Below the pieces are notes generated by a model. The model was given only the letters and a program-made list of their open reading frames with translations. It was not told where the DNA came from and did not search any database. The position numbers and the translations under genes were made by a program. From Candidatus Accumulibacter sp. ACC003 (GTDB lineage Bacteria; Pseudomonadota; Gammaproteobacteria; Burkholderiales; Rhodocyclaceae), in assembly GCF_907163085.1 (NCBI RefSeq), contig NZ_CAJQTX010000004.1:140956-204955 (forward strand): a stretch of 64,000 bases of DNA, written 5' to 3'. Below are positions 26,483-43,021 of this stretch, in pieces (positions within the stretch are counted from its first letter, which is position 1; each line of letters opens with the position of its first letter).

Positions 26483-28390
26483 CACGGTAAATTTGTTCTC
26501 GTGCCGGGATCAAGGTGATACGTGGCCTGTAGAATTTTTGGTCATGCGCAGGTAGTCGAAGACCAATCGGATGTTGCGGTTGAGGTGGCGCATTTTTTCG
26601 GAAATGCTGGTTTTGCCGTCGGAGAAGTGGTGCAGGATTCCGACGGCAAAGCGGCGCAGGCGTGACATGTTCTCGGGTCCGTAACCAGTCCGAATACGGC
26701 TACGGTCCTCGTCGTAGTTCCAGTCGATGACGTAGTGACAGCGGTTCTCTATCGACCAATGGCCGCGATTGATGGCGAGGATTTGCTGTGGGCTGGCCTG
26801 TTCTGGAGGGCGACTGGTGATCCCGAGAGCGATTTCGTGCGTCCGCTTGCCGCTCTTCTTGTGCAGCACTTCGCGCTCGATCAAGAACACCTGGCCGACA
26901 TACGGGAAGTCGAGATAGGCGTTGAGGGCATTGCTGCACCAAATACGCCGAGTCTCGATCCGACCATGGTCAGGTGGCGAAACCGCCACGAAGTCTGCCC
27001 CCTTCCGATCCTGGAAGAGGAGCGCGATATCGGCTTGCAGTGTTGGCTGATTGCCTTTGACCGTGAAGTGATAGTGCGCCTTGCGCTCCACCAGGTAGGT
27101 CGCCAGCTTGCGCTGTGTCAGTAGCGCGTCGGCGGTGATGTCCTTGCCCTGAATATCGATCGCATCGAGCAGGGGTATGAACATCCCGATTTCATTGGTC
27201 TGCTTGAGCTCGTCCCCGCCATTTACGGGCAAGGTGCCGACTTTTTTTGGGTGTGACACACGCCGGTCTGATGCCCGACCACGCTCATGATGTGTGCTTG
27301 CTGACCGTGCTCGTCATGGGCATTGCGCATGGTCTTGCCGTCGACCGCCAGACTGGGGTCGTCTTGAGCATAGGCCTTGTTCCACTGCTGACACGCTTGA
27401 TCGAGCGCCATGGGATCGACACGGATCAGGACGTCACGAATGATGAACTCGCTGGGTACGCGGTAAACGCCCTTCTCGCGACGACAGCGGAAACGCTCGC
27501 GTGCTTTCGGTGTGAGGTCTTTGGCCCACCCGGCGATGGCTTTGTAGCCCCGCATTCCGCACAAGACCGCCGCCGTGGCGATGGCCAGAACGGCAGGAAG
27601 GGGGTGACGCCTTCCTTGCGCGCGCCGCGGGTCGGCGATGCCGGCAAAGAAATCGGGAAGCGTGCGCATCTGTTCGGCGGTGAGCATCATCCTGGGCGCT
27701 CCTGTGCGATAGCGGGGGTTGAGTATCGAGCGGGAAAGTTGGCCGCGAGCGTCCGCCTGCAAGGGGCGAACAAAGACAACTTTGGGCGACGTCGGGTGGG
27801 CGCTGTAGCCTTCTCGGGTGCGGCGAAAGCCTTGCGTCAGCCCCAGAGGCGTCCAGTTCGCGGCGCGATAGACGGTCCCCTGGAAGCGCGAGGGGTCCAC
27901 AAAGGTCTCCAGCAGTAACAGCGGCTTCCCGAAATGCGCCTGCCAATCCTCGGCGACCCGTCGCTCGCACAGCGAGAGCACCTTGGAGCCGAGATTGGGG
28001 TAATGCCAATCGGGAAGGATCAGAAAGCGACTGTTGTTGGCGACCAGGCCCAAGCGATCGTACTGATGCCGATAGTCCCAGCCGATCCAGCGGTCACGAA
28101 CGCCGCATTTCCAGGCCGCCGCAGAGAAACTCAGCAGGGCCGTCCACTTTTCGCCGTAGGTGGCCACGTACCAAAGCGTGTGCCCGATCTTCGCCAGGTC
28201 GCCCAGGTAGTGATGCTCTGCCATCAACTCCCGATAGCGAGCCTCTTCGCTCTTGCCCACCAAGCGAACACGCAATGCACCAAGAACGCTTTCCATGCGC
28301 CATTTATACGGACTTCCGGCGCAGATGTCCAGGGGGAAGAACTAACTGCTTGATTGCCCGTGCGTTGCCTGAGAGGACAAATCCACCCTG
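26483..28390 (-). mobile_element. ISAs1-family IS with DUF4338 domain, copy A (1908 bp)
   Basis: Imperfect IRs CAGGGTGGATTTGTCCTC / CACGGTAAATTTGTTCTC; 10-bp TSD CGTGGGCAGT (26473-26482, 28391-28400). Confidence 0.95.
26510..28296 (-). CDS. DUF4338-ISAs1 transposase fusion (two ORFs joined by predicted -1 frameshift, about 595 aa)
   Basis: ORF1 27223-28296 (DUF4338, DPR..QGRRH.L..VL, AVDGKT); ORF2 26510-27259 (NEI...PLLD..D, ITADALLTQ, HGRIETR, R.HW.IEN..H...D..Y.ED..R.R); A-AAA-AAG at 27247-27241. Confidence 0.85.
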
Positions 28391-28901: not shown

Positions 28902-30809
28902 CACGGTAAATTTGTTCTCGTGCCGGGATCAAGGTGATACGTGGCCTGTAGAATTTTTGGTCATGCGCAGGTAGTCGAAGACCAATCGGATGTTGCGGTT
29001 GAGGTGGCGCATTTTTTCGGAAATGCTGGTTTTGCCGTCGGAGAAGTGGTGCAGGATTCCGACGGCAAAGCGGCGCAGGCGTGACATGTTCTCGGGTCCG
29101 TAACCAGTCCGAATACGGCTACGGTCCTCGTCGTAGTTCCAGTCGATGACGTAGTGACAGCGGTTCTCTATCGACCAATGGCCGCGATTGATGGCGAGGA
29201 TTTGCTGTGGGCTGGCCTGTTCTGGAGGGCGACTGGTGATCCCGAGAGCGATTTCGTGCGTCCGCTTGCCGCTCTTCTTGTGCAGCACTTCGCGCTCGAT
29301 CAAGAACACCTGGCCGACATACGGGAAGTCGAGATAGGCGTTGAGGGCATTGCTGCACCAAATACGCCGAGTCTCGATCCGACCATGGTCAGGTGGCGAA
29401 ACCGCCACGAAGTCTGCCCCCTTCCGATCCTGGAAGAGGAGCGCGATATCGGCTTGCAGTGTTGGCTGATTGCCTTTGACCGTGAAGTGATAGTGCGCCT
29501 TGCGCTCCACCAGGTAGGTCGCCAGCTTGCGCTGTGTCAGTAGCGCGTCGGCGGTGATGTCCTTGCCCTGAATATCGATCGCATCGAGCAGGGGTATGAA
29601 CATCCCGATTTCATTGGTCTGCTTGAGCTCGTCCCCGCCATTTACGGGCAAGGTGCCGACTTTTTTTGGGTGTGACACACGCCGGTCTGATGCCCGACCA
29701 CGCTCATGATGTGTGCTTGCTGACCGTGCTCGTCATGGGCATTGCGCATGGTCTTGCCGTCGACCGCCAGACTGGGGTCGTCTTGAGCATAGGCCTTGTT
29801 CCACTGCTGACACGCTTGATCGAGCGCCATGGGATCGACACGGATCAGGACGTCACGAATGATGAACTCGCTGGGTACGCGGTAAACGCCCTTCTCGCGA
29901 CGACAGCGGAAACGCTCGCGTGCTTTCGGTGTGAGGTCTTTGGCCCACCCGGCGATGGCTTTGTAGCCCCGCATTCCGCACAAGACCGCCGCCGTGGCGA
30001 TGGCCAGAACGGCAGGAAGGGGGTGACGCCTTCCTTGCGCGCGCCGCGGGTCGGCGATGCCGGCAAAGAAATCGGGAAGCGTGCGCATCTGTTCGGCGGT
30101 GAGCATCATCCTGGGCGCTCCTGTGCGATAGCGGGGGTTGAGTATCGAGCGGGAAAGTTGGCCGCGAGCGTCCGCCTGCAAGGGGCGAACAAAGACAACT
30201 TTGGGCGACGTCGGGTGGGCGCTGTAGCCTTCTCGGGTGCGGCGAAAGCCTTGCGTCAGCCCCAGAGGCGTCCAGTTCGCGGCGCGATAGACGGTCCCCT
30301 GGAAGCGCGAGGGGTCCACAAAGGTCTCCAGCAGTAACAGCGGCTTCCCGAAATGCGCCTGCCAATCCTCGGCGACCCGTCGCTCGCACAGCGAGAGCAC
30401 CTTGGAGCCGAGATTGGGGTAATGCCAATCGGGAAGGATCAGAAAGCGACTGTTGTTGGCGACCAGGCCCAAGCGATCGTACTGATGCCGATAGTCCCAG
30501 CCGATCCAGCGGTCACGAACGCCGCATTTCCAGGCCGCCGCAGAGAAACTCAGCAGGGCCGTCCACTTTTCGCCGTAGGTGGCCACGTACCAAAGCGTGT
30601 GCCCGATCTTCGCCAGGTCGCCCAGGTAGTGATGCTCTGCCATCAACTCCCGATAGCGAGCCTCTTCGCTCTTGCCCACCAAGCGAACACGCAATGCACC
30701 AAGAACGCTTTCCATGCGCCATTTATACGGACTTCCGGCGCAGATGTCCAGGGGGAAGAACTAACTGCTTGATTGCCCGTGCGTTGCCTGAGAGGACAAA
30801 TCCACCCTG
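28902..30809 (-). mobile_element. ISAs1-family IS with DUF4338 domain, copy B (1908 bp)
   Basis: Same sequence and ORFs as copy A (28929-29678, 29642-30715); flanks ATCGCTGCCT / ATCGCTGCGT (9 of 10 match). Confidence 0.95.
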
Positions 30810-36978: not shown

Positions 36979-39354
36979 CAGATTTCCTGATCTCGGAGGA
37001 AACCGGGTTGGCACTTCAGACAAGAGTGAAGGTCATTCTTGCCCCGGTTTCCGGATGCGGAAAATCTTGCAGGGTGAGTTCCTCGAGGAGCGCGGCGATA
37101 GCGCGATCATGAGCTGGGCTGGCCATCCGGTGAATTTTGATGGTCAGGGTGTTGGCTAGCGCGTTCGGTTCGATGTCAGCGGAAGAAACGAACAATTCGC
37201 GAATGAGCGCACGTGCGTCGTCCTCCTTCTTCAAGTGGCGGCGCAATAGCGCCACCATGGCGGTCTCGGCCCGGTAGGCGACCATTTTCACGGTATCGCA
37301 GAGCATCTTGTTCAGCGGCGGCAGTTGGGTCGGTCGCTCGGCCTCGGGCAGACTGTCGATCGTCACCTTTCGGGGGCTTGCCTTGCGCGCCGCGCAAAGT
37401 CGCTTGAGCTCCTCCTGAACGGCCTGCAGTGCTTCGACAGACTCGGCGTTTTTCTGGATTTCGCCGCCGTCGTTCAAGGCCGTCCTGGCGATTGCGGCCT
37501 GCAGTTTTCTTTCGCTCTGGCGGGTTTGCCTGACGGCCTTGTCGAGTTCCCGCCAGCGGGGGTTAACGACCTGGTGAGTGCCGGGAAGAGAGTCGTCTCC
37601 GTACTCGATAAGCCCATCAATATCATAATGTTCCATCATGTACGCGAAGTAGTTTTCCTGGCACCAACGGGCGAACATCCGCCCAGCGATGGTGGTGTTT
37701 CCGAGTTGCCGGGCGGTCGTGATCACGGCTGTTTGATGTCCCGTCTGGGTCAGCCGACGAACTTCGCTCACGGCCAGGCTGCCATCGCCTGTGCCGAGTC
37801 GGGTTTCGCGCATGGCGAGTTTCATCCCGGTGCTGCCGCCTGCCGGCAGATGGACTTCCTGTTCCTGAAACACCTCTTCGGACCAGAGGTCCTTGACGTT
37901 CTTGCGGTAGGTCAGTGCGCCGATGCGCTGTTTCCAGAGTCTGCCGAGGAGACTCTGGGTGGCCCCTTCCCGATCGAAGACCATGACAAACCGGTGCAGG
38001 GTCGGGTCGGCGTCCAGTTCGGCCGGCGTCGGCTGTCCCGGGACAATCTCCAGCAGTTGGGGGACGATGTCCTTGAGCAGGGTCTCGGCGAGTCCGTCAT
38101 TGAGCGGCTGCGAAACCACAAAGAACGGGCGACCCAGGGCATCGTTAACCCAGTAGTCGGTGGTGCCCCGCAGGCACAGGCGTTCGCGCGAGACGTAGCG
38201 CTTCGACAGCCTGGCCTGCTCGCCGTGATACACCCGAACATGACCATCGACATACAGGTAACCCGCTTCTTCTGGCTCGCTTTCCATCCAGAGCTTCGCG
38301 AGATCCCGCATCCAGGCTGCCGGGTCACCCGTCTTGGCCAGCAGATGGACCTTTTCCCGCAGGGTGCGGACTTCCGGTACCCGGTCCAGGCCGATGACTT
38401 TGCCGAGTTCTCCGGGCGAGGTTTGTCGCAGATGTTCCGGCCGCTTGATTCGCCCCAGGGCCATGAAGCCGAGGACGAGAAGGATGTGCAAGGCGCTGTA
38501 GAATCCCCGGGGCAGCTTGAGATGGCGATCCAGGCCGGTCAGTAGCCCGTTCGCGCACAAGGCCGGCAAGCCGGCCAACAGCCCCCCCATCGCCACATCG
38601 TGGCTCGCTTCGAAGCGCGTCGTCGCACCGGTCGCCAATCCCAGCGCCGTTTGGATCCGCTCGTCGGCGCGCGTGCAGGCGGTGCCCATCCCCGCGGCGG
38701 CTTCCGCATCCGCCCGGCTGCGCTCACTCTTGGTGCTCGCCGCTTCCAACTCCCCTGCCTCTTGCGGCAAGGCGGCCAACTGCGGCACGCCCTGGCGCCG
38801 GATCGCCTTGCGCAGCGTCGACTCCTGGACGCCCACCTGCCGTGCCACTTCGGCAGGACGCTTTCCCTCGCTCAACAGCCGCGCGCATTCGGCACTCTTG
38901 TCCGGCGTCATGATCCGCGGCCGGCTCGCCGCCGCCGGTCGAAAGAAAGACGATGGCCCGGCTTTGCGGCTTTGTCCCACCCAGTTCATCAGCGTGCGGT
39001 GCGGGATGCACAGCGGTGGCCTTTCCAGTTCGACCGCCTTGACGTGCCCGTTCTCCATCAGGCTGGTCAGAGCGAACCTGCGGCCAGCGTCGTCTCCTAC
39101 GGGGTGCGAGAAGTAATTGTCTCCCCCAACAAAGTAGATCGCTTGGCCATCCTTCTCCAGAATCGCCAACCCTTCTCCCACTTTCTGCGCACCATCCGGA
39201 AACCCTGGAAGCCACGATTGCCTCAACGTCTGCTCCTCCTTGCACTCCTAGCGAAGCTTGGTTTATGCCATAAGAAAATCATGGCCGTCAAAATAAAGTG
39301 CCACGTGCAATTCCGGAATTCTATCTACATTCCCGGCCGGGATCAGGAAATCTG
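36979..39354 (-). mobile_element. 2376-bp IS, copy 2 (transposase 37016-39226)
   Basis: Same 14-bp IR; 5-bp TSD ACCTT (36974-36978, 39355-39359). Confidence 0.95.
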
Positions 39355-40080
39355 ACCTTTATCTGCTGCTCGAATTCCAGAGCAGCGTCGACCGCTACAT
39401 GGCGCTGCGCATGATGGTCTATGTCGGGCTGCTCTATCAGGACCTTATCAAGCGGGGCGAGGTTCTCGCCGACGGTCGCCTGCCGCCGGTCCTGCCGATT
39501 GTTCTCTACAACGGCAGCCAGCGCTGGACGGCGTCAAACGACGTTTTTGAATTGATTCCGCCGGTTCCGGGGCTGGTCGATCAGTTCAAGCCCCGCTTGA
39601 AGTACCTGCTGATCGACGAAAACGCCTATACCGACGACGAACTGGCCTCGCTCAATAACCTGGTCGCGGCCGTCTTCCGCATCGAACACCCGCCGTCGCC
39701 GGCCGCCATCGGCGTCCTGCTCGGTCTGCTCGACGAGTGGCTGGTCGACCGGCCCGACCTGCGTCGGATGTTTGCCCTCTGGATTCGGGCCACATTGATG
39801 CGCAAGGCGGAATATCGTATCGTGTTGCCTCAGATCGACGATTTACAGGAGCTGAATGTCATGTTGGCCGAACGACTCGAACAATGGGCGCACGCCTACA
39901 AGGCCGAAGGAAAAGCCGAGGGAAAAGCCGAGGGTGAAGCGCTGGCCTTGCAGAAGCTCCTCCAGAGGCGTTTTGGTACCGTACCGTCGCCGGTTCTGGC
40001 AATGATCTCTGCGGCGTCCCTTGAACAGGTCGTAAGTATTCGGCCAACCCGTAGTGAGCCAGCGCCGTTGGCGAGGCCGG

Positions 40081-40938
40081 TTAGCGGCAGAGGATTGATC
40101 GGAAGGCTCTGTGAAGGGGATAGAGCCAGATATCCTTGATCGGGAGGATGGGCTTGCTGGTGGGGCACTTCTTGCCTCGGCCGGCGGTTTGGCCGACCTT
40201 GATCCAGTTGGCGGCCTGGTAGCAGGTGCCGCGATGGCGGGGGGTCTCGACGAAGGTTTCGAGCAGCACGGGGCGGTAACCGTAGCGCGCCAGCCAGTCC
40301 TTGGGCAGTTGCCGCTGCATGAGCGAGAGGATCTTGGAGGCCAGGCCCTTGCACTGGATCCAGGGCAGGATCAGAAAGCGGGCATTGTTCACCACCAGTT
40401 GCAGGTTCCTTTGTCGCTGCTCATCGTGCCAACCGATGAATTGCTCGCGCGCGGCGAGTTTCCAGGCGCTGGCGGCGAAGCTGAGCAAGGCGACGAGTGT
40501 CTCGCCGGCGAAGACGAAGTATCGGCTCTGACTGCCGGCCATGGGCGTGTGGCCGAGATAGTGGTAACGAGCGATGTACTCGTTCCACAGACGCGAGTTC
40601 GCCGAACCGACGACCTGTCGCACCGAGAGAGGCGGCAGTTCATGCACCGGCTGAGTGAGCAAGGGTTGTGGATCGGTGGCGTGCGTGGGCCGATACTCGG
40701 GTTGGCGAGGAGCGGTCCGTCGTGCAGCCGGCAGGGTGAGCAGGCCGTCGGCTTGCATGCGCAGCATGGCCACCCGGCAGGTCATATCCTTCAGCTCACC
40801 ATTGGGCTTGCGCCAGTCGAAGAGCTCGCACACCTGACGCGAGAGTTGTGCGCGGCTGGCGCCGGGAGGGGCCTCGATCAGGCCGCGGATCGTCTGCAGT
40901 TCGTCGGCGGTAAAGTGGCGCCCGCAATAAGGCTTCAC
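40081..40938 (-). CDS. DUF4338 (DruA-like) domain protein
   Basis: HYLG, L.F.A.AWK...R..FIGW, VNN.RFLILPW, LASK.L, LLETFV....GT.Y.AANW..VG.T.GRG; GTG start overlaps tnpC TGA. Confidence 0.85.
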   Translation of the reverse strand: MKPYCGRHFTADELQTIRGLIEAPPGASRAQLSRQVCELFDWRKPNGELKDMTCRVAMLRMQADGLLTLPAARRTAPRQPEYRPTHATDPQPLLTQPVHELPPLSVRQVVGSANSRLWNEYIARYHYLGHTPMAGSQSRYFVFAGETLVALLSFAASAWKLAAREQFIGWHDEQRQRNLQLVVNNARFLILPWIQCKGLASKILSLMQRQLPKDWLARYGYRPVLLETFVETPRHRGTCYQAANWIKVGQTAGRGKKCPTSKPILPIKDIWLYPLHRAFRSILCR

Positions 40939-42647
40939 GAGCTATCGATGGAAGGTGTCTGATTGACCGGGATGGCACGCATCTGGGCCAGACGATCGGT
41001 CGCCATCGCCCAGGGCAGAAAGGCGCTCAAGTCCGCTGGTGGCTGGTTGCCGTTGGCGGCGCAGGCTTCCAGATAAGCCGTCAGCCAGATGCGCGGGTTG
41101 ATTCCCCACAAGCGCAGCGTCAGCAGCAAGCTGAACATCGTCGCGGCGAGTGCGCCGGACCAGAGACTGCCCGACCCATAGAAGTTCTTGCGTGCGACCA
41201 CCGGCGTGCGCTGTGCGCGCTCGGCGGCATTATTGTCCATCGCCACCTCGGGGCGGTCGACAAAGACGGTCAGGCCGGACCAATGTTTGCGCATGCTTCG
41301 CAGCACCTTGCTCGCCGGCATTTTGAGCGCCGGGTTCGCCAGTTCGCTTTCCCGTTGACTGGCCATTTGCGTGATCGCCTGCCGCAAGGCGCGGTCGCGT
41401 TCGGCCCACTGTACTGGGTCGCTACGGACTTCCAGGCGCCGTCCATTCAAGTGGTAGAGCTGAGCGATCTGCTCGACCCAGGCCAGTGCCCAGTCCGCGA
41501 GCTCCGGATGGGCGTTGGCCAGTTCCAGGAAATCACGCCGCTGATGTGCCCAGCAGAAAGCCAGAATGAAGTGGTCAAGGACTCGCGCGAGCTTCTTGTA
41601 GGCCGAATAGCGATCACAGATGATGACTCCTCCGGCGCTACCGGAGAGCTCCCGGATCGGCACCGCCGCCGAGCGGCTCGGGTCGAGCACGAAGTGGATG
41701 ACCGATGGGCCGTGGAACACCCAGAAATACCAGCGATGTCCGACCTTCCCTTCGGTCTCGGCAAAAACCCGCCAGCGAGTCTCGTCCGCGTGCCACTGTT
41801 TCTCGCGACGCAGTCGGCCAAGCAGTGCTTCTTCAAGCGGCTCGAACAGCGGCGCCAAGGCACGAAGTCCGCCGGCCACCGTTCCTGCCGAAAGCCTCAG
41901 TTGGTGGTCGGACCAGTCTCGTAGAAGCCGATGCGTCGGCTGACCGTACAAGAACTTCGACAGCAGCAAGTGCACCCAAATCGACACGCCGTACTTTCCA
42001 CGCGGGATCAATCGTGCCGGCGGTGGCGCGGTCAGAATGCCGCGGGCGCCCGGGCACTGACAGGTCCGCCGGTAGCGCCGCCGGCAGATCTTCCGGCGGT
42101 AGGCTTTGACCTCGATCTCGAGAACTTCACTGTCTTCTGTGCCGGGAAAGTCGACGTAGCTCAGACCACAGTCCGGGCAATGCGGGCAGTCGATGTCGAT
42201 GACCTCGATCTGCGTCGGCAAGTGGCTTTCCGGATTCCGCCCGTGACCCGTTGCTCCCGGTTGATGACCTCGACCCCGCGACGACTTCTGGTCTGCTGCC
42301 GGGTTCTTCTCGGCTCCCGAAGAGCGTTCTGACTTGCGACCAAACAGGCGTTTTTGCAGATCGCGGATCCGGCCCTGGGCCTGCTCGAGCTCGCTACGCA
42401 AGGCCGCCTCACGCGCCGCCGCTTGCTCCGCCGCACGCGCCATTTCCACCCGATGAGCGGCCTCCGATTCCGCCAAACGGACCAGCGCTTGCCGATGTTG
42501 GCTGCGCCAGAAGTTGGCCTCCCAACGGAGCTTGATTTCCTGCTCCTTGGTCAACGTCACCAACACCTCGGCGAACGGCGCCACTTGGCGGTGACTTGCC
42601 GCCGATCCTCCGCAGATAATGTCCGTAGCCGTGCCCATGCGCCGCAT
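40935..42647 (-). CDS. tnpC: IS66 transposase TnpC
   Basis: N-terminal coiled coil (LFGRKSE), Zn ribbon CP.CG..C.C, HADET.W, .CD.YSAY, CWAH.RR.F, DNN.AERA.R; start codon uncertain. Confidence 0.9.
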   Translation of the reverse strand: MRRMGTATDIICGGSAASHRQVAPFAEVLVTLTKEQEIKLRWEANFWRSQHRQALVRLAESEAAHRVEMARAAEQAAAREAALRSELEQAQGRIRDLQKRLFGRKSERSSGAEKNPAADQKSSRGRGHQPGATGHGRNPESHLPTQIEVIDIDCPHCPDCGLSYVDFPGTEDSEVLEIEVKAYRRKICRRRYRRTCQCPGARGILTAPPPARLIPRGKYGVSIWVHLLLSKFLYGQPTHRLLRDWSDHQLRLSAGTVAGGLRALAPLFEPLEEALLGRLRREKQWHADETRWRVFAETEGKVGHRWYFWVFHGPSVIHFVLDPSRSAAVPIRELSGSAGGVIICDRYSAYKKLARVLDHFILAFCWAHQRRDFLELANAHPELADWALAWVEQIAQLYHLNGRRLEVRSDPVQWAERDRALRQAITQMASQRESELANPALKMPASKVLRSMRKHWSGLTVFVDRPEVAMDNNAAERAQRTPVVARKNFYGSGSLWSGALAATMFSLLLTLRLWGINPRIWLTAYLEACAANGNQPPADLSAFLPWAMATDRLAQMRAIPVNQTPSIDSS

Positions 42648-43021
42648 GGTGCCGGATTTCCGCTGCTGTGTCCAGTTCAGATCTCCGGGCTGCCCGCCAA
42701 TCGCTGACGGAAGCTCGCCCACCAAAAAAACCGGGGCTACGGGTTCACCGAATACTTACAACAGGTCGACCTTTGGCTCGATCAAGTATTTGACGCGGCA
42801 AGCCTCGACGACATCTTCGGGCCAAACGGCTCCTGAAACGGTGCAAAAGAAGGCGTCTCCTTGAGTAGCGCTTGATCGCAGCCGCGATCAGCCCGCTTGC
42901 TGTCGGTCGCTGCAAAAAGAGCGTGCAACGCGCTTCGCGGCTTCCGCAGCCCCACTGGAGACAAGCCAGAAGCGCAGCGGAAAGCATGGCGATAGCCTCC
43001 TTCGAGAGCCTTGTCATTCCC

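Follow-up and report, generated by a model that had tools for sequence, protein, structure and literature searches.

An IS66-family insertion sequence of Candidatus Accumulibacter in which tnpC overlaps a DUF4338 gene encoding a candidate transposition accessory factor

The 64,000-nucleotide stretch of Candidatus Accumulibacter sp. ACC003 analyzed here (contig NZ_CAJQTX010000004.1, positions 140,956 to 204,955; hereafter the window) carries at positions 40032-42759 an IS66-family insertion sequence of 2,728 bp with two genes, both on the minus strand (Table 1). The first, tnpC, encodes a DDE transposase that matches PF03050 at 2.3e-58 and the NF033517 equivalog with 297 bits against a cut-off of 180. 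Its open frame (40935..42725) reaches back to a TTG at 42725; the ATG at 42647 is most likely the true start, because a second subfamily of the element (subfamily B, described below) has a stop codon in the upstream leader. The product of the second gene belongs to PF14236 (DruA, formerly DUF4338), which it matches at 2.9e-40 with 138.7 bits against a gathering cut-off of 27. Only 112 nt lie upstream of tnpC, leaving no room for tnpA or tnpB, and a search of the genome for TnpB_IS66 (PF05717) found it only at two canonical IS66 copies elsewhere and not in the element. A scan of the element for promoters and terminators found none on the coding strand. The DUF4338 protein would be made by termination-reinitiation at the overlap of the two genes, in step with the transposase. 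A first-pass annotation of the window had described an IS66 element without tnpA and tnpB, in which tnpC is followed by a 285-amino-acid (aa) DUF4338 gene with a GTGA overlap; the family matches and the short leader bear out the first part of this description, and the overlap is indeed present at 40935-40938.

The boundaries of the element are well defined. Both ends start with GTAAGTATTCGG and are of the GTAAG type, with the 5′-GTAA of the IS66 family, and the left terminal inverted repeat is identical to the reverse complement of the right one at 21 of 23 positions, the mismatches being positions 13-14. An identical AACAGGTC flanks the element on each side. The first-pass annotation had called both the inverted repeats and the target-site duplication perfect, which is correct for the duplication (8/8) and not for the repeats; it had also placed the end of the DUF4338 gene 48 bp from the inverted repeat, when in fact 49 nt separate the stop codon from the element's outer end and 26 nt separate it from the repeat's inner edge. 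When the flanks are joined with one copy of the duplication retained, they form a 233-aa Rpn/YhgA-like (Transposase_31-like) open reading frame with a normal C-terminus, and therefore the insertion split a gene, the last 22 codons of which resume beyond the element at 42768-42836.

Table 1. Coordinates of the element, its two genes and its insertion site in the window
Feature	Position	Strand	Description
Target gene, 5′ part	39399..40031	+	Interrupted by the element; Rpn/YhgA-like, Pfam Transposase_31 + DUF4351
Target-site duplication, left copy	40024..40031	.	AACAGGTC, 8 bp, identical to 42760-42767
Left terminal inverted repeat (IRL), gene-distal end	40032..40054	+	GTAAGTATTCGGCCAACCCGTAG; terminus common to 28/28 genomic copies
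DUF4338/DruA-family gene	40081..40938	-	285 aa, GTG start
GTGA overlap	40935..40938	-	GTG start of the DUF4338 gene shares bases with the TGA stop of tnpC
tnpC, IS66-family DDE transposase	40935..42647	-	570 aa from ATG at 42647
Right terminal inverted repeat (IRR), tnpC-proximal end	42737..42759	-	Reverse complement GTAAGTATTCGGTGAACCCGTAG
Target-site duplication, right copy	42760..42767	.	AACAGGTC, 8 bp, perfect

We surveyed the whole genome (5.39 Mb on 13 contigs; coordinates outside the window are given as contig C-number:position) and found 28 full-length copies of the element in two subfamilies. Seven copies are 98-100% identical to the window copy, with one other copy 100% identical to it, and the 21 copies of subfamily B, each 2,716 bp, are 94% identical to it. 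Perfect 8-bp duplications of differing sequence flank 26 of the 28 copies, and no target-site consensus was evident among the duplications of the set; one of the two exceptions is explained, as that copy had inserted immediately next to the end of another. A number of insertions, several in all, lie in other repeats, where the reconstructed empty sites correspond to unoccupied paralogues (800 bp, 100% identity). The tnpC and DUF4338 open reading frames are both intact in all 28 copies. Between the subfamilies the ratio of nonsynonymous to synonymous substitution rates (dN/dS) comes to 0.19 in tnpC and 0.17 in the DUF4338 gene (dS about 0.17-0.18), and the DUF4338 gene is under purifying selection as strong as that on tnpC. 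The whole 2.7-kb unit, second gene included, has been copied at least 28 times in this genome, and the earlier claim that it moved in its two-gene form holds. The element is an intact, recently active two-gene IS66-family insertion sequence, and such elements make up over 1% of this Accumulibacter-like genome.

Several individual insertions are of interest in their own right. The copies at C1:246277-249004 and C1:249012-251727, one from each subfamily, lie 7 bp apart, and their flanks are as expected if the first copy inserted into an 8-bp target of which the initial G of the second copy's inverted repeat was part. Three copies drawn from both subfamilies (C7:78364, C7:535743 and C11:40338) occupy the same 8-bp target, AAAACTAC, which lies in different copies of a repeat with about 25 unoccupied paralogues; this shared target may be either a local hot spot or a coincidence. 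The copy at C7:557072-559823 owes its length of 2,752 bp to 24 additional in-frame nucleotides within the coiled-coil region of tnpC, whose open frame there is 614 aa. As for the window copy, its Rpn/YhgA-like target gene is itself truncated at the 5′ end and adjoins a gene for a 736-aa Transposase_29 protein (window 37016-39226), and the region around 37016-40031 is a nest of insertion sequences.

The pairing of tnpC with a DUF4338 gene was then followed in other genomes. When one genome of each prokaryotic species was scanned, 227 relatives of the DUF4338 protein were confirmed, and the best 80 loci were analyzed. Close relatives of the element occur in Candidatus Accumulibacter genomes, and the 80 loci span the Beta- and Gammaproteobacteria, Thermodesulfobacteriota, Planctomycetota, Verrucomicrobiota, Spirochaetota, Acidobacteriota, Gemmatimonadota and Bacillota. 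An IS66 transposase gene lies directly upstream on the same strand in 70 of them (65 by tblastn and 5 more by Pfam). Of the 65 loci in which the overlap was measurable, 54 retain the 4-nt ATGA or GTGA, at protein identities as low as 47%. The search that the first-pass annotation had proposed, for tnpC-DUF4338 pairs bounded by GTAA...TTAC, recovered 29 loci in other genomes, whose terminal inverted repeats follow the consensus GTAA(A/G)(T/C)ATTCGGTGAACCCGT. These bounded loci are about 2.5-3.0 kb long (most 2.6-2.85 kb), their DUF4338 stop codon is mostly 25-83 bp from the element end, and 13 of the 29 have a perfect 8-bp duplication. In the plasmid collection, only two records held a relative of the DUF4338 protein, the best TnpC match was 32% identical, and no named annotated relative was found.

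Matches to TnpA or TnpB were not found in 77 of the 80 related loci. A requirement for canonical TnpA and TnpB supplied in trans was considered and rejected: TnpB_IS66 is missing from two of the eight genomes that carry the element, and therefore such helpers are not needed in general. In one lineage the gene order is reversed, and its member L089 carries tnpB together with the DUF4338 gene and tnpC. Thus the DUF4338 gene is not strictly an alternative to tnpA and tnpB, and the earlier statement that it stands in their place is right for the element in the window and goes too far as a general rule. In a tree of TnpC sequences, the transposases linked to tnpA and tnpB are set apart by a long supported branch (100/98); the base of the DUF4338-linked sequences is not resolved, and we do not claim their monophyly.

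To describe the product of the second gene, we built an AlphaFold2 model of the 285-aa protein on 32 relatives, with a mean predicted local distance difference test score (pLDDT) of 86. In the model, three helices form an N-terminal domain (residues ~1-72), which a variable linker connects to an alpha/beta core (about 104-285). The core has a GNAT fold: Foldseek returned 101 matches in the PDB at E<=1e-3, and 50 of the 50 matches listed are GNAT-fold proteins, with FeeM, a Coxiella acetyltransferase and RimI at the top. Krishnan et al. (PMC10853773) had likewise classed DUF4338 as GNAT. Phage Mu Mom (8bv8) is at rank 8 in the PDB search and has the highest query TM-score (0.43) among the matches listed. 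Searching the PDB by sequence, with either the protein or the family profile, gave chance-level matches only. Among viral models (BFVD) there were 48 matches at E<=1e-3, reaching 7.5e-9, with a named Mom at rank 5 (1.2e-7). Many of the BFVD matches to the core are phage proteins (for example A0A8S5PXW9, A0A6J5LAL1 and I7KLM9) some 400-700 aa in length whose annotation is endonuclease-like or homing endonuclease, which suggests that Mom-like GNAT domains have been joined to other mobile-DNA enzymes too. At the level of families, Pfam Mom (PF25680) is matched by 24 of the 32 relatives (best E 3e-5), no other Pfam GNAT or acetyltransferase family is matched by any of the 32, and the sole PHROG match is 'Mom-like DNA modification protein' (6e-6). 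The top structural neighbours of the N-terminal domain, none of them significant, are all winged-helix DNA-binding domains; this helical domain probably binds nucleic acid, and a winged-helix identity is a suggestion.

A Mom family alignment was built and compared profile to profile (hhalign) with the family of the transposon protein, and conservation was scored over the 32 relatives. The active-site residues of Mom are H58, Y59, R111, S124, D149, R151 and Y159 (PMC13219725). H58 and Y59 correspond to H126 and Y127 of the transposon protein, S124 to S201, and Y159, together with the Q-A-x-N that follows it, to Y240, each conserved in 32 of 32 sequences; R151 has its counterpart in R234, offset by at most one position (32/32), and D149 in an E or D at position 231 (30/32). 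An A-A-N-W motif, S201, H126/Y127, R234 and Y240 are invariant in the 32 sequences, which share 45-94% identity. The GNAT motif for binding the pyrophosphate of acyl-CoA, Q/R-x-x-G-x-G/A after strand 4, is retained only in part at 195-200, with Q, K or R at the first position in 26 of 32, G198 in 17 and A200 in all 32. The alignment ends near Mom residue 170, and the ~35 residues that remain form two strands and a short helix in the model. With counterparts of most of the residues that Mom needs, the GNAT domain is probably catalytically active.

The DUF4338 module is also found with other transposases. This genome holds 83 matches to PF14236, on four element types. One is an ISAs1-type element with about 27 genomic copies, among them those at window positions 26510-28296, 28929-30715 and 43289 onward. 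Its first open reading frame (357 aa) combines the DUF4338 core, without the N-terminal helical domain, with DDE_Tnp_1_assoc; the DDE core (249 aa) comes next, in the -1 frame. Within the overlap lies CAA AAA AAG, with the classic A_AAA_AAG -1 slippery heptamer (27241-27248), at which a programmed frameshift would yield the full transposase. Absence of the N-terminal domain from the ISAs1 version, noted in the first-pass annotation, agrees with a DruA profile match that begins at residue 8 of the fused form (profile position 50); the IS66, Tn5-fused and separate-frame forms all have the ~75-aa domain. Another type, a 2,820-bp element (C5:413310-416129) with about 20 copies in the genome and none in the window, has an ISAs1-type transposase and a separate DUF4338 gene (about 310 aa, N-terminal domain present) that lies upstream of, and overlaps, the DDE_Tnp_1_assoc/DDE_Tnp_1 transposase gene; in this paralogue the H-Y motif has become H-P and the A-A-N-W motif A-A-G-W. 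The complete module also forms the N-terminus of Tn5-like transposases of 741 and 778 aa (C7:34379-36601, C12:5631-6116 and C7:570488-572821), which carry Tnp_DNA_bind, DDE_Tnp_1 and Dimer_Tnp_Tn5.

In two of the 80 loci (L080 and L076) a Tn5-like transposase takes the place of TnpC. Their DUF4338 proteins nest within the IS66-linked clade of a maximum-likelihood tree (100/98), which shows a partner swap. A profile search of 1.84 billion cluster representatives gave 13,099 proteins at E<=0.001, 2,314 of them at E<=1e-30, and ten long representative matches were sampled for fusion architecture. Three of the ten are in-frame fusions of an IS66 transposase with DUF4338 (743-883 aa) in the gene order of the element; further sampled fusions join the module to Tn5-like, DDE_Tnp_1 and IS630-type DDE_3 transposases. 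The association of DUF4338 with several unrelated transposases points to an undescribed transposition helper.

On this evidence we think it probable that the DUF4338 protein of the two-gene IS66 element is a dedicated transposition accessory factor, probably an enzymatic one, and not a defence passenger. It would work alongside the transposase, probably as part of a single complex located at the ends of the transposon or at the target, and its most likely activity would be to transfer an acyl or aminoacyl group to DNA or to one of the proteins in the transposition complex. Such a transfer would control or enable transposition, with activation, copy-number control and protection all possible directions. 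Dam controls the transposition of IS10 and IS50; by analogy, one possibility is that transposition here is controlled by a mark that the element itself makes on its ends or on the target. Several observations pull the other way. In the PDB structure search, Mom scores no better than other GNATs such as FeeM and RimI; the window protein itself reaches only 15.2 bits against PF25680 (E 0.017), below the cut-off of 27.1; and the profile-profile alignment with Mom, at E 0.0034, has an hhalign probability of only 9.5%. R111 of Mom falls in a gap of that alignment and has no clear counterpart, and the essential helix-turn-helix-like insertion of Mom (residues ~175-209) is absent from the transposon protein. 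The N-terminal 78 residues, modelled alone (pLDDT 81), gave no significant structural match (best E about 1). The fusions come from metagenome gene calls, so that some may be frame or sequencing errors at the overlap, and two of the ten sampled matches join DUF4338 to an adenylate/guanylate cyclase domain (P0335, 594 aa) or to MORN repeats (P0298, 560 aa); in these two, either the module is used outside transposons or the gene calls are chimeric, and on their account the family is not exclusive to transposons. Finally, PF14236 bears the name of a defence protein, DruA.

A more far-reaching proposal, which we put forward only tentatively and do not expect to hold in full, is that DUF4338 proteins are Mom-type nucleic-acid transferases dependent on acyl-CoA or aminoacyl-tRNA, and serve as a portable partner exchanged by at least four to five unrelated DDE transposase families. 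They would chemically mark the transposon ends, the donor or the target DNA, and so time the movement of the element or shield the element from host defences; the DruA of Druantia would then be their defence-side relative, from which a testable idea of its function would follow. Another reading, unlikely in our judgment, is that the protein is a non-catalytic DNA-binding or regulatory subunit, engaged for example in recognition of the inverted repeats, complex assembly or inhibition, with the GNAT fold as a scaffold only; its role would then resemble that of small accessory proteins in other insertion sequences. Such a subunit accounts for the linkage and the fusions as well as an enzyme does, and the conserved N-terminal domain with its non-significant winged-helix neighbours, the partial retention of the cofactor loop (G198 in 17 of 32) and the loss of 'invariant' residues from paralogues in the same genome (H-Y to H-P in the 324-aa and 741-aa forms) would all suit it. 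Against it, the residues that are invariant across the 32 sequences, namely S201, H126/Y127, R234, Y240 and the A-A-N-W motif, coincide with the catalytic needs of Mom, and the ISAs1-fused form has dropped the N-terminal domain and retained the GNAT core, which suggests that the core carries the essential function.

We regard as improbable that the DUF4338 gene is a passenger, defence-related or otherwise beneficial to the host, that the insertion sequence merely carries. Its membership of PF14236, with the Pfam name DruA (Druantia type I), invites this idea, and IS66 relatives can carry extra genes, such as the pRiA4b ORF-3 family gene after tnpC on a Stutzerimonas plasmid. (That locus, L106, is on plasmid NZ_CP078510.1 of Stutzerimonas stutzeri at 63730-65820, where the gene follows a canonical tnpA-tnpB-tnpC by 3 bp; the family is also present in similar Pseudomonas aeruginosa plasmids and is another recurrent fourth IS66 gene.) Yet the Druantia DruA model of PADLOC gives only 14.6 bits (E 0.0033) over 49 residues, and DruB-E cannot be present because the DUF4338 gene sits inside the inverted repeats. 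Nor would one expect cargo to go on overlapping the transposase gene by 4 nt from phylum to phylum, to be fused in frame to at least four transposase families, or to be under constraint equal to that on tnpC in 28 copies. The GNAT fold, and the tRNA-acting GNATs among the structural relatives discussed for Mom (PMC13219725), also raise the thought of a toxin like the tRNA-acetylating TacT and AtaT, by which the element would be stabilised through addiction. This we consider very improbable, and a toxin-antitoxin reading was rejected for want of a partner gene and for the high copy number: the 2.7-kb element has no antitoxin-sized gene, 28 intact copies and 83 DUF4338 copies in all coexist in one genome, and fusion of a toxin to transposases makes no sense.

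The transposition mechanism of IS66 elements and the roles of their accessory proteins are still poorly understood, and a large IS66 group that crosses phyla has an enzyme-like partner in place of the usual accessory proteins. Current annotation of these elements reads only 'IS66 family transposase' and 'DUF4338 domain-containing protein'. If the partner is required, it would be a GNAT-fold transposition cofactor serving unrelated transposase families (Tn5/IS4, ISAs1, IS630 and IS66); no description of a GNAT-fold cofactor shared by unrelated transposases was found in our literature search. A required partner of this kind would also provide a biochemical hypothesis for DUF4338/DruA in Druantia type I and extend the newly described chemistry of Mom beyond phages.

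Comparison with known systems places the element as follows. With canonical IS66 elements (IS66, IS679 and ISEc8, organized as tnpA-tnpB-tnpC) it shares an IS66-type DDE transposase, GTAAG termini, an 8-bp duplication and ATGA-type overlaps, and an ISEc8 copy used as positive control showed GTAAGCGTACAGC... ends and an 8-bp duplication. In contrast to these, it lacks the tnpA and tnpB that lie upstream of tnpC and has a 285-aa DUF4338 gene after it, its TnpC is only 28-32% identical to canonical TnpC, and its inverted-repeat consensus diverges after GTAA. The ISBst12 group (ISBst12 and ISDge4) consists of a single transposase open reading frame with GTAA-type ends and an 8-bp duplication (PMC12898284). 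Compared by description, the element resembles this group in its ends, its duplication and the absence of tnpA and tnpB; that same description sets it apart, since the group has one open reading frame and the element has a coupled second gene, intact in 28 of 28 copies, and its transposase is 570 aa as against 449 aa in ISDge4. The ISBst12 and IS66 literature that we searched makes no mention of such a second gene, and a full-text literature search (ISfinder not covered) returned no paper tying DUF4338/DruA to transposons: four papers mention DUF4338, none of them about transposons, and among the hits listed none paired DruA with transposase.

For the protein, the nearest comparison is phage Mu Mom (8BV8), a glycyl-tRNA-dependent DNA adenine modifier. 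The two share the GNAT fold, no family but Mom is matched in Pfam and PHROG apart from the protein's own, the transposon protein has counterparts of H58/Y59, S124, D149, Y159 and the Y-Q-A-x-N motif, and Mom, too, belongs to an element that replicates by DDE transposition. They differ in that the similarity is below family thresholds and that the transposon protein has an N-terminal helical domain of its own. DruA of Druantia type I belongs to the same Pfam family, PF14236, but the protein here has 285 aa against the 407 positions of the PADLOC model, which it matches weakly (14.6 bits), and its gene lies inside a multi-copy insertion sequence with tnpC as sole neighbour, never beside DruB-E. 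Lastly, transposases that NCBI names 'ISAs1 family' or 'IS4 family', such as the ISAs1-type copies of the window and a Thiodictyon plasmid match, have an N-terminal DUF4338 domain that goes unremarked, physically linked to the DDE transposase. In these proteins the module forms part of the transposase itself, whereas in the IS66 element it is a separate, coupled protein encoded downstream of an unrelated transposase.

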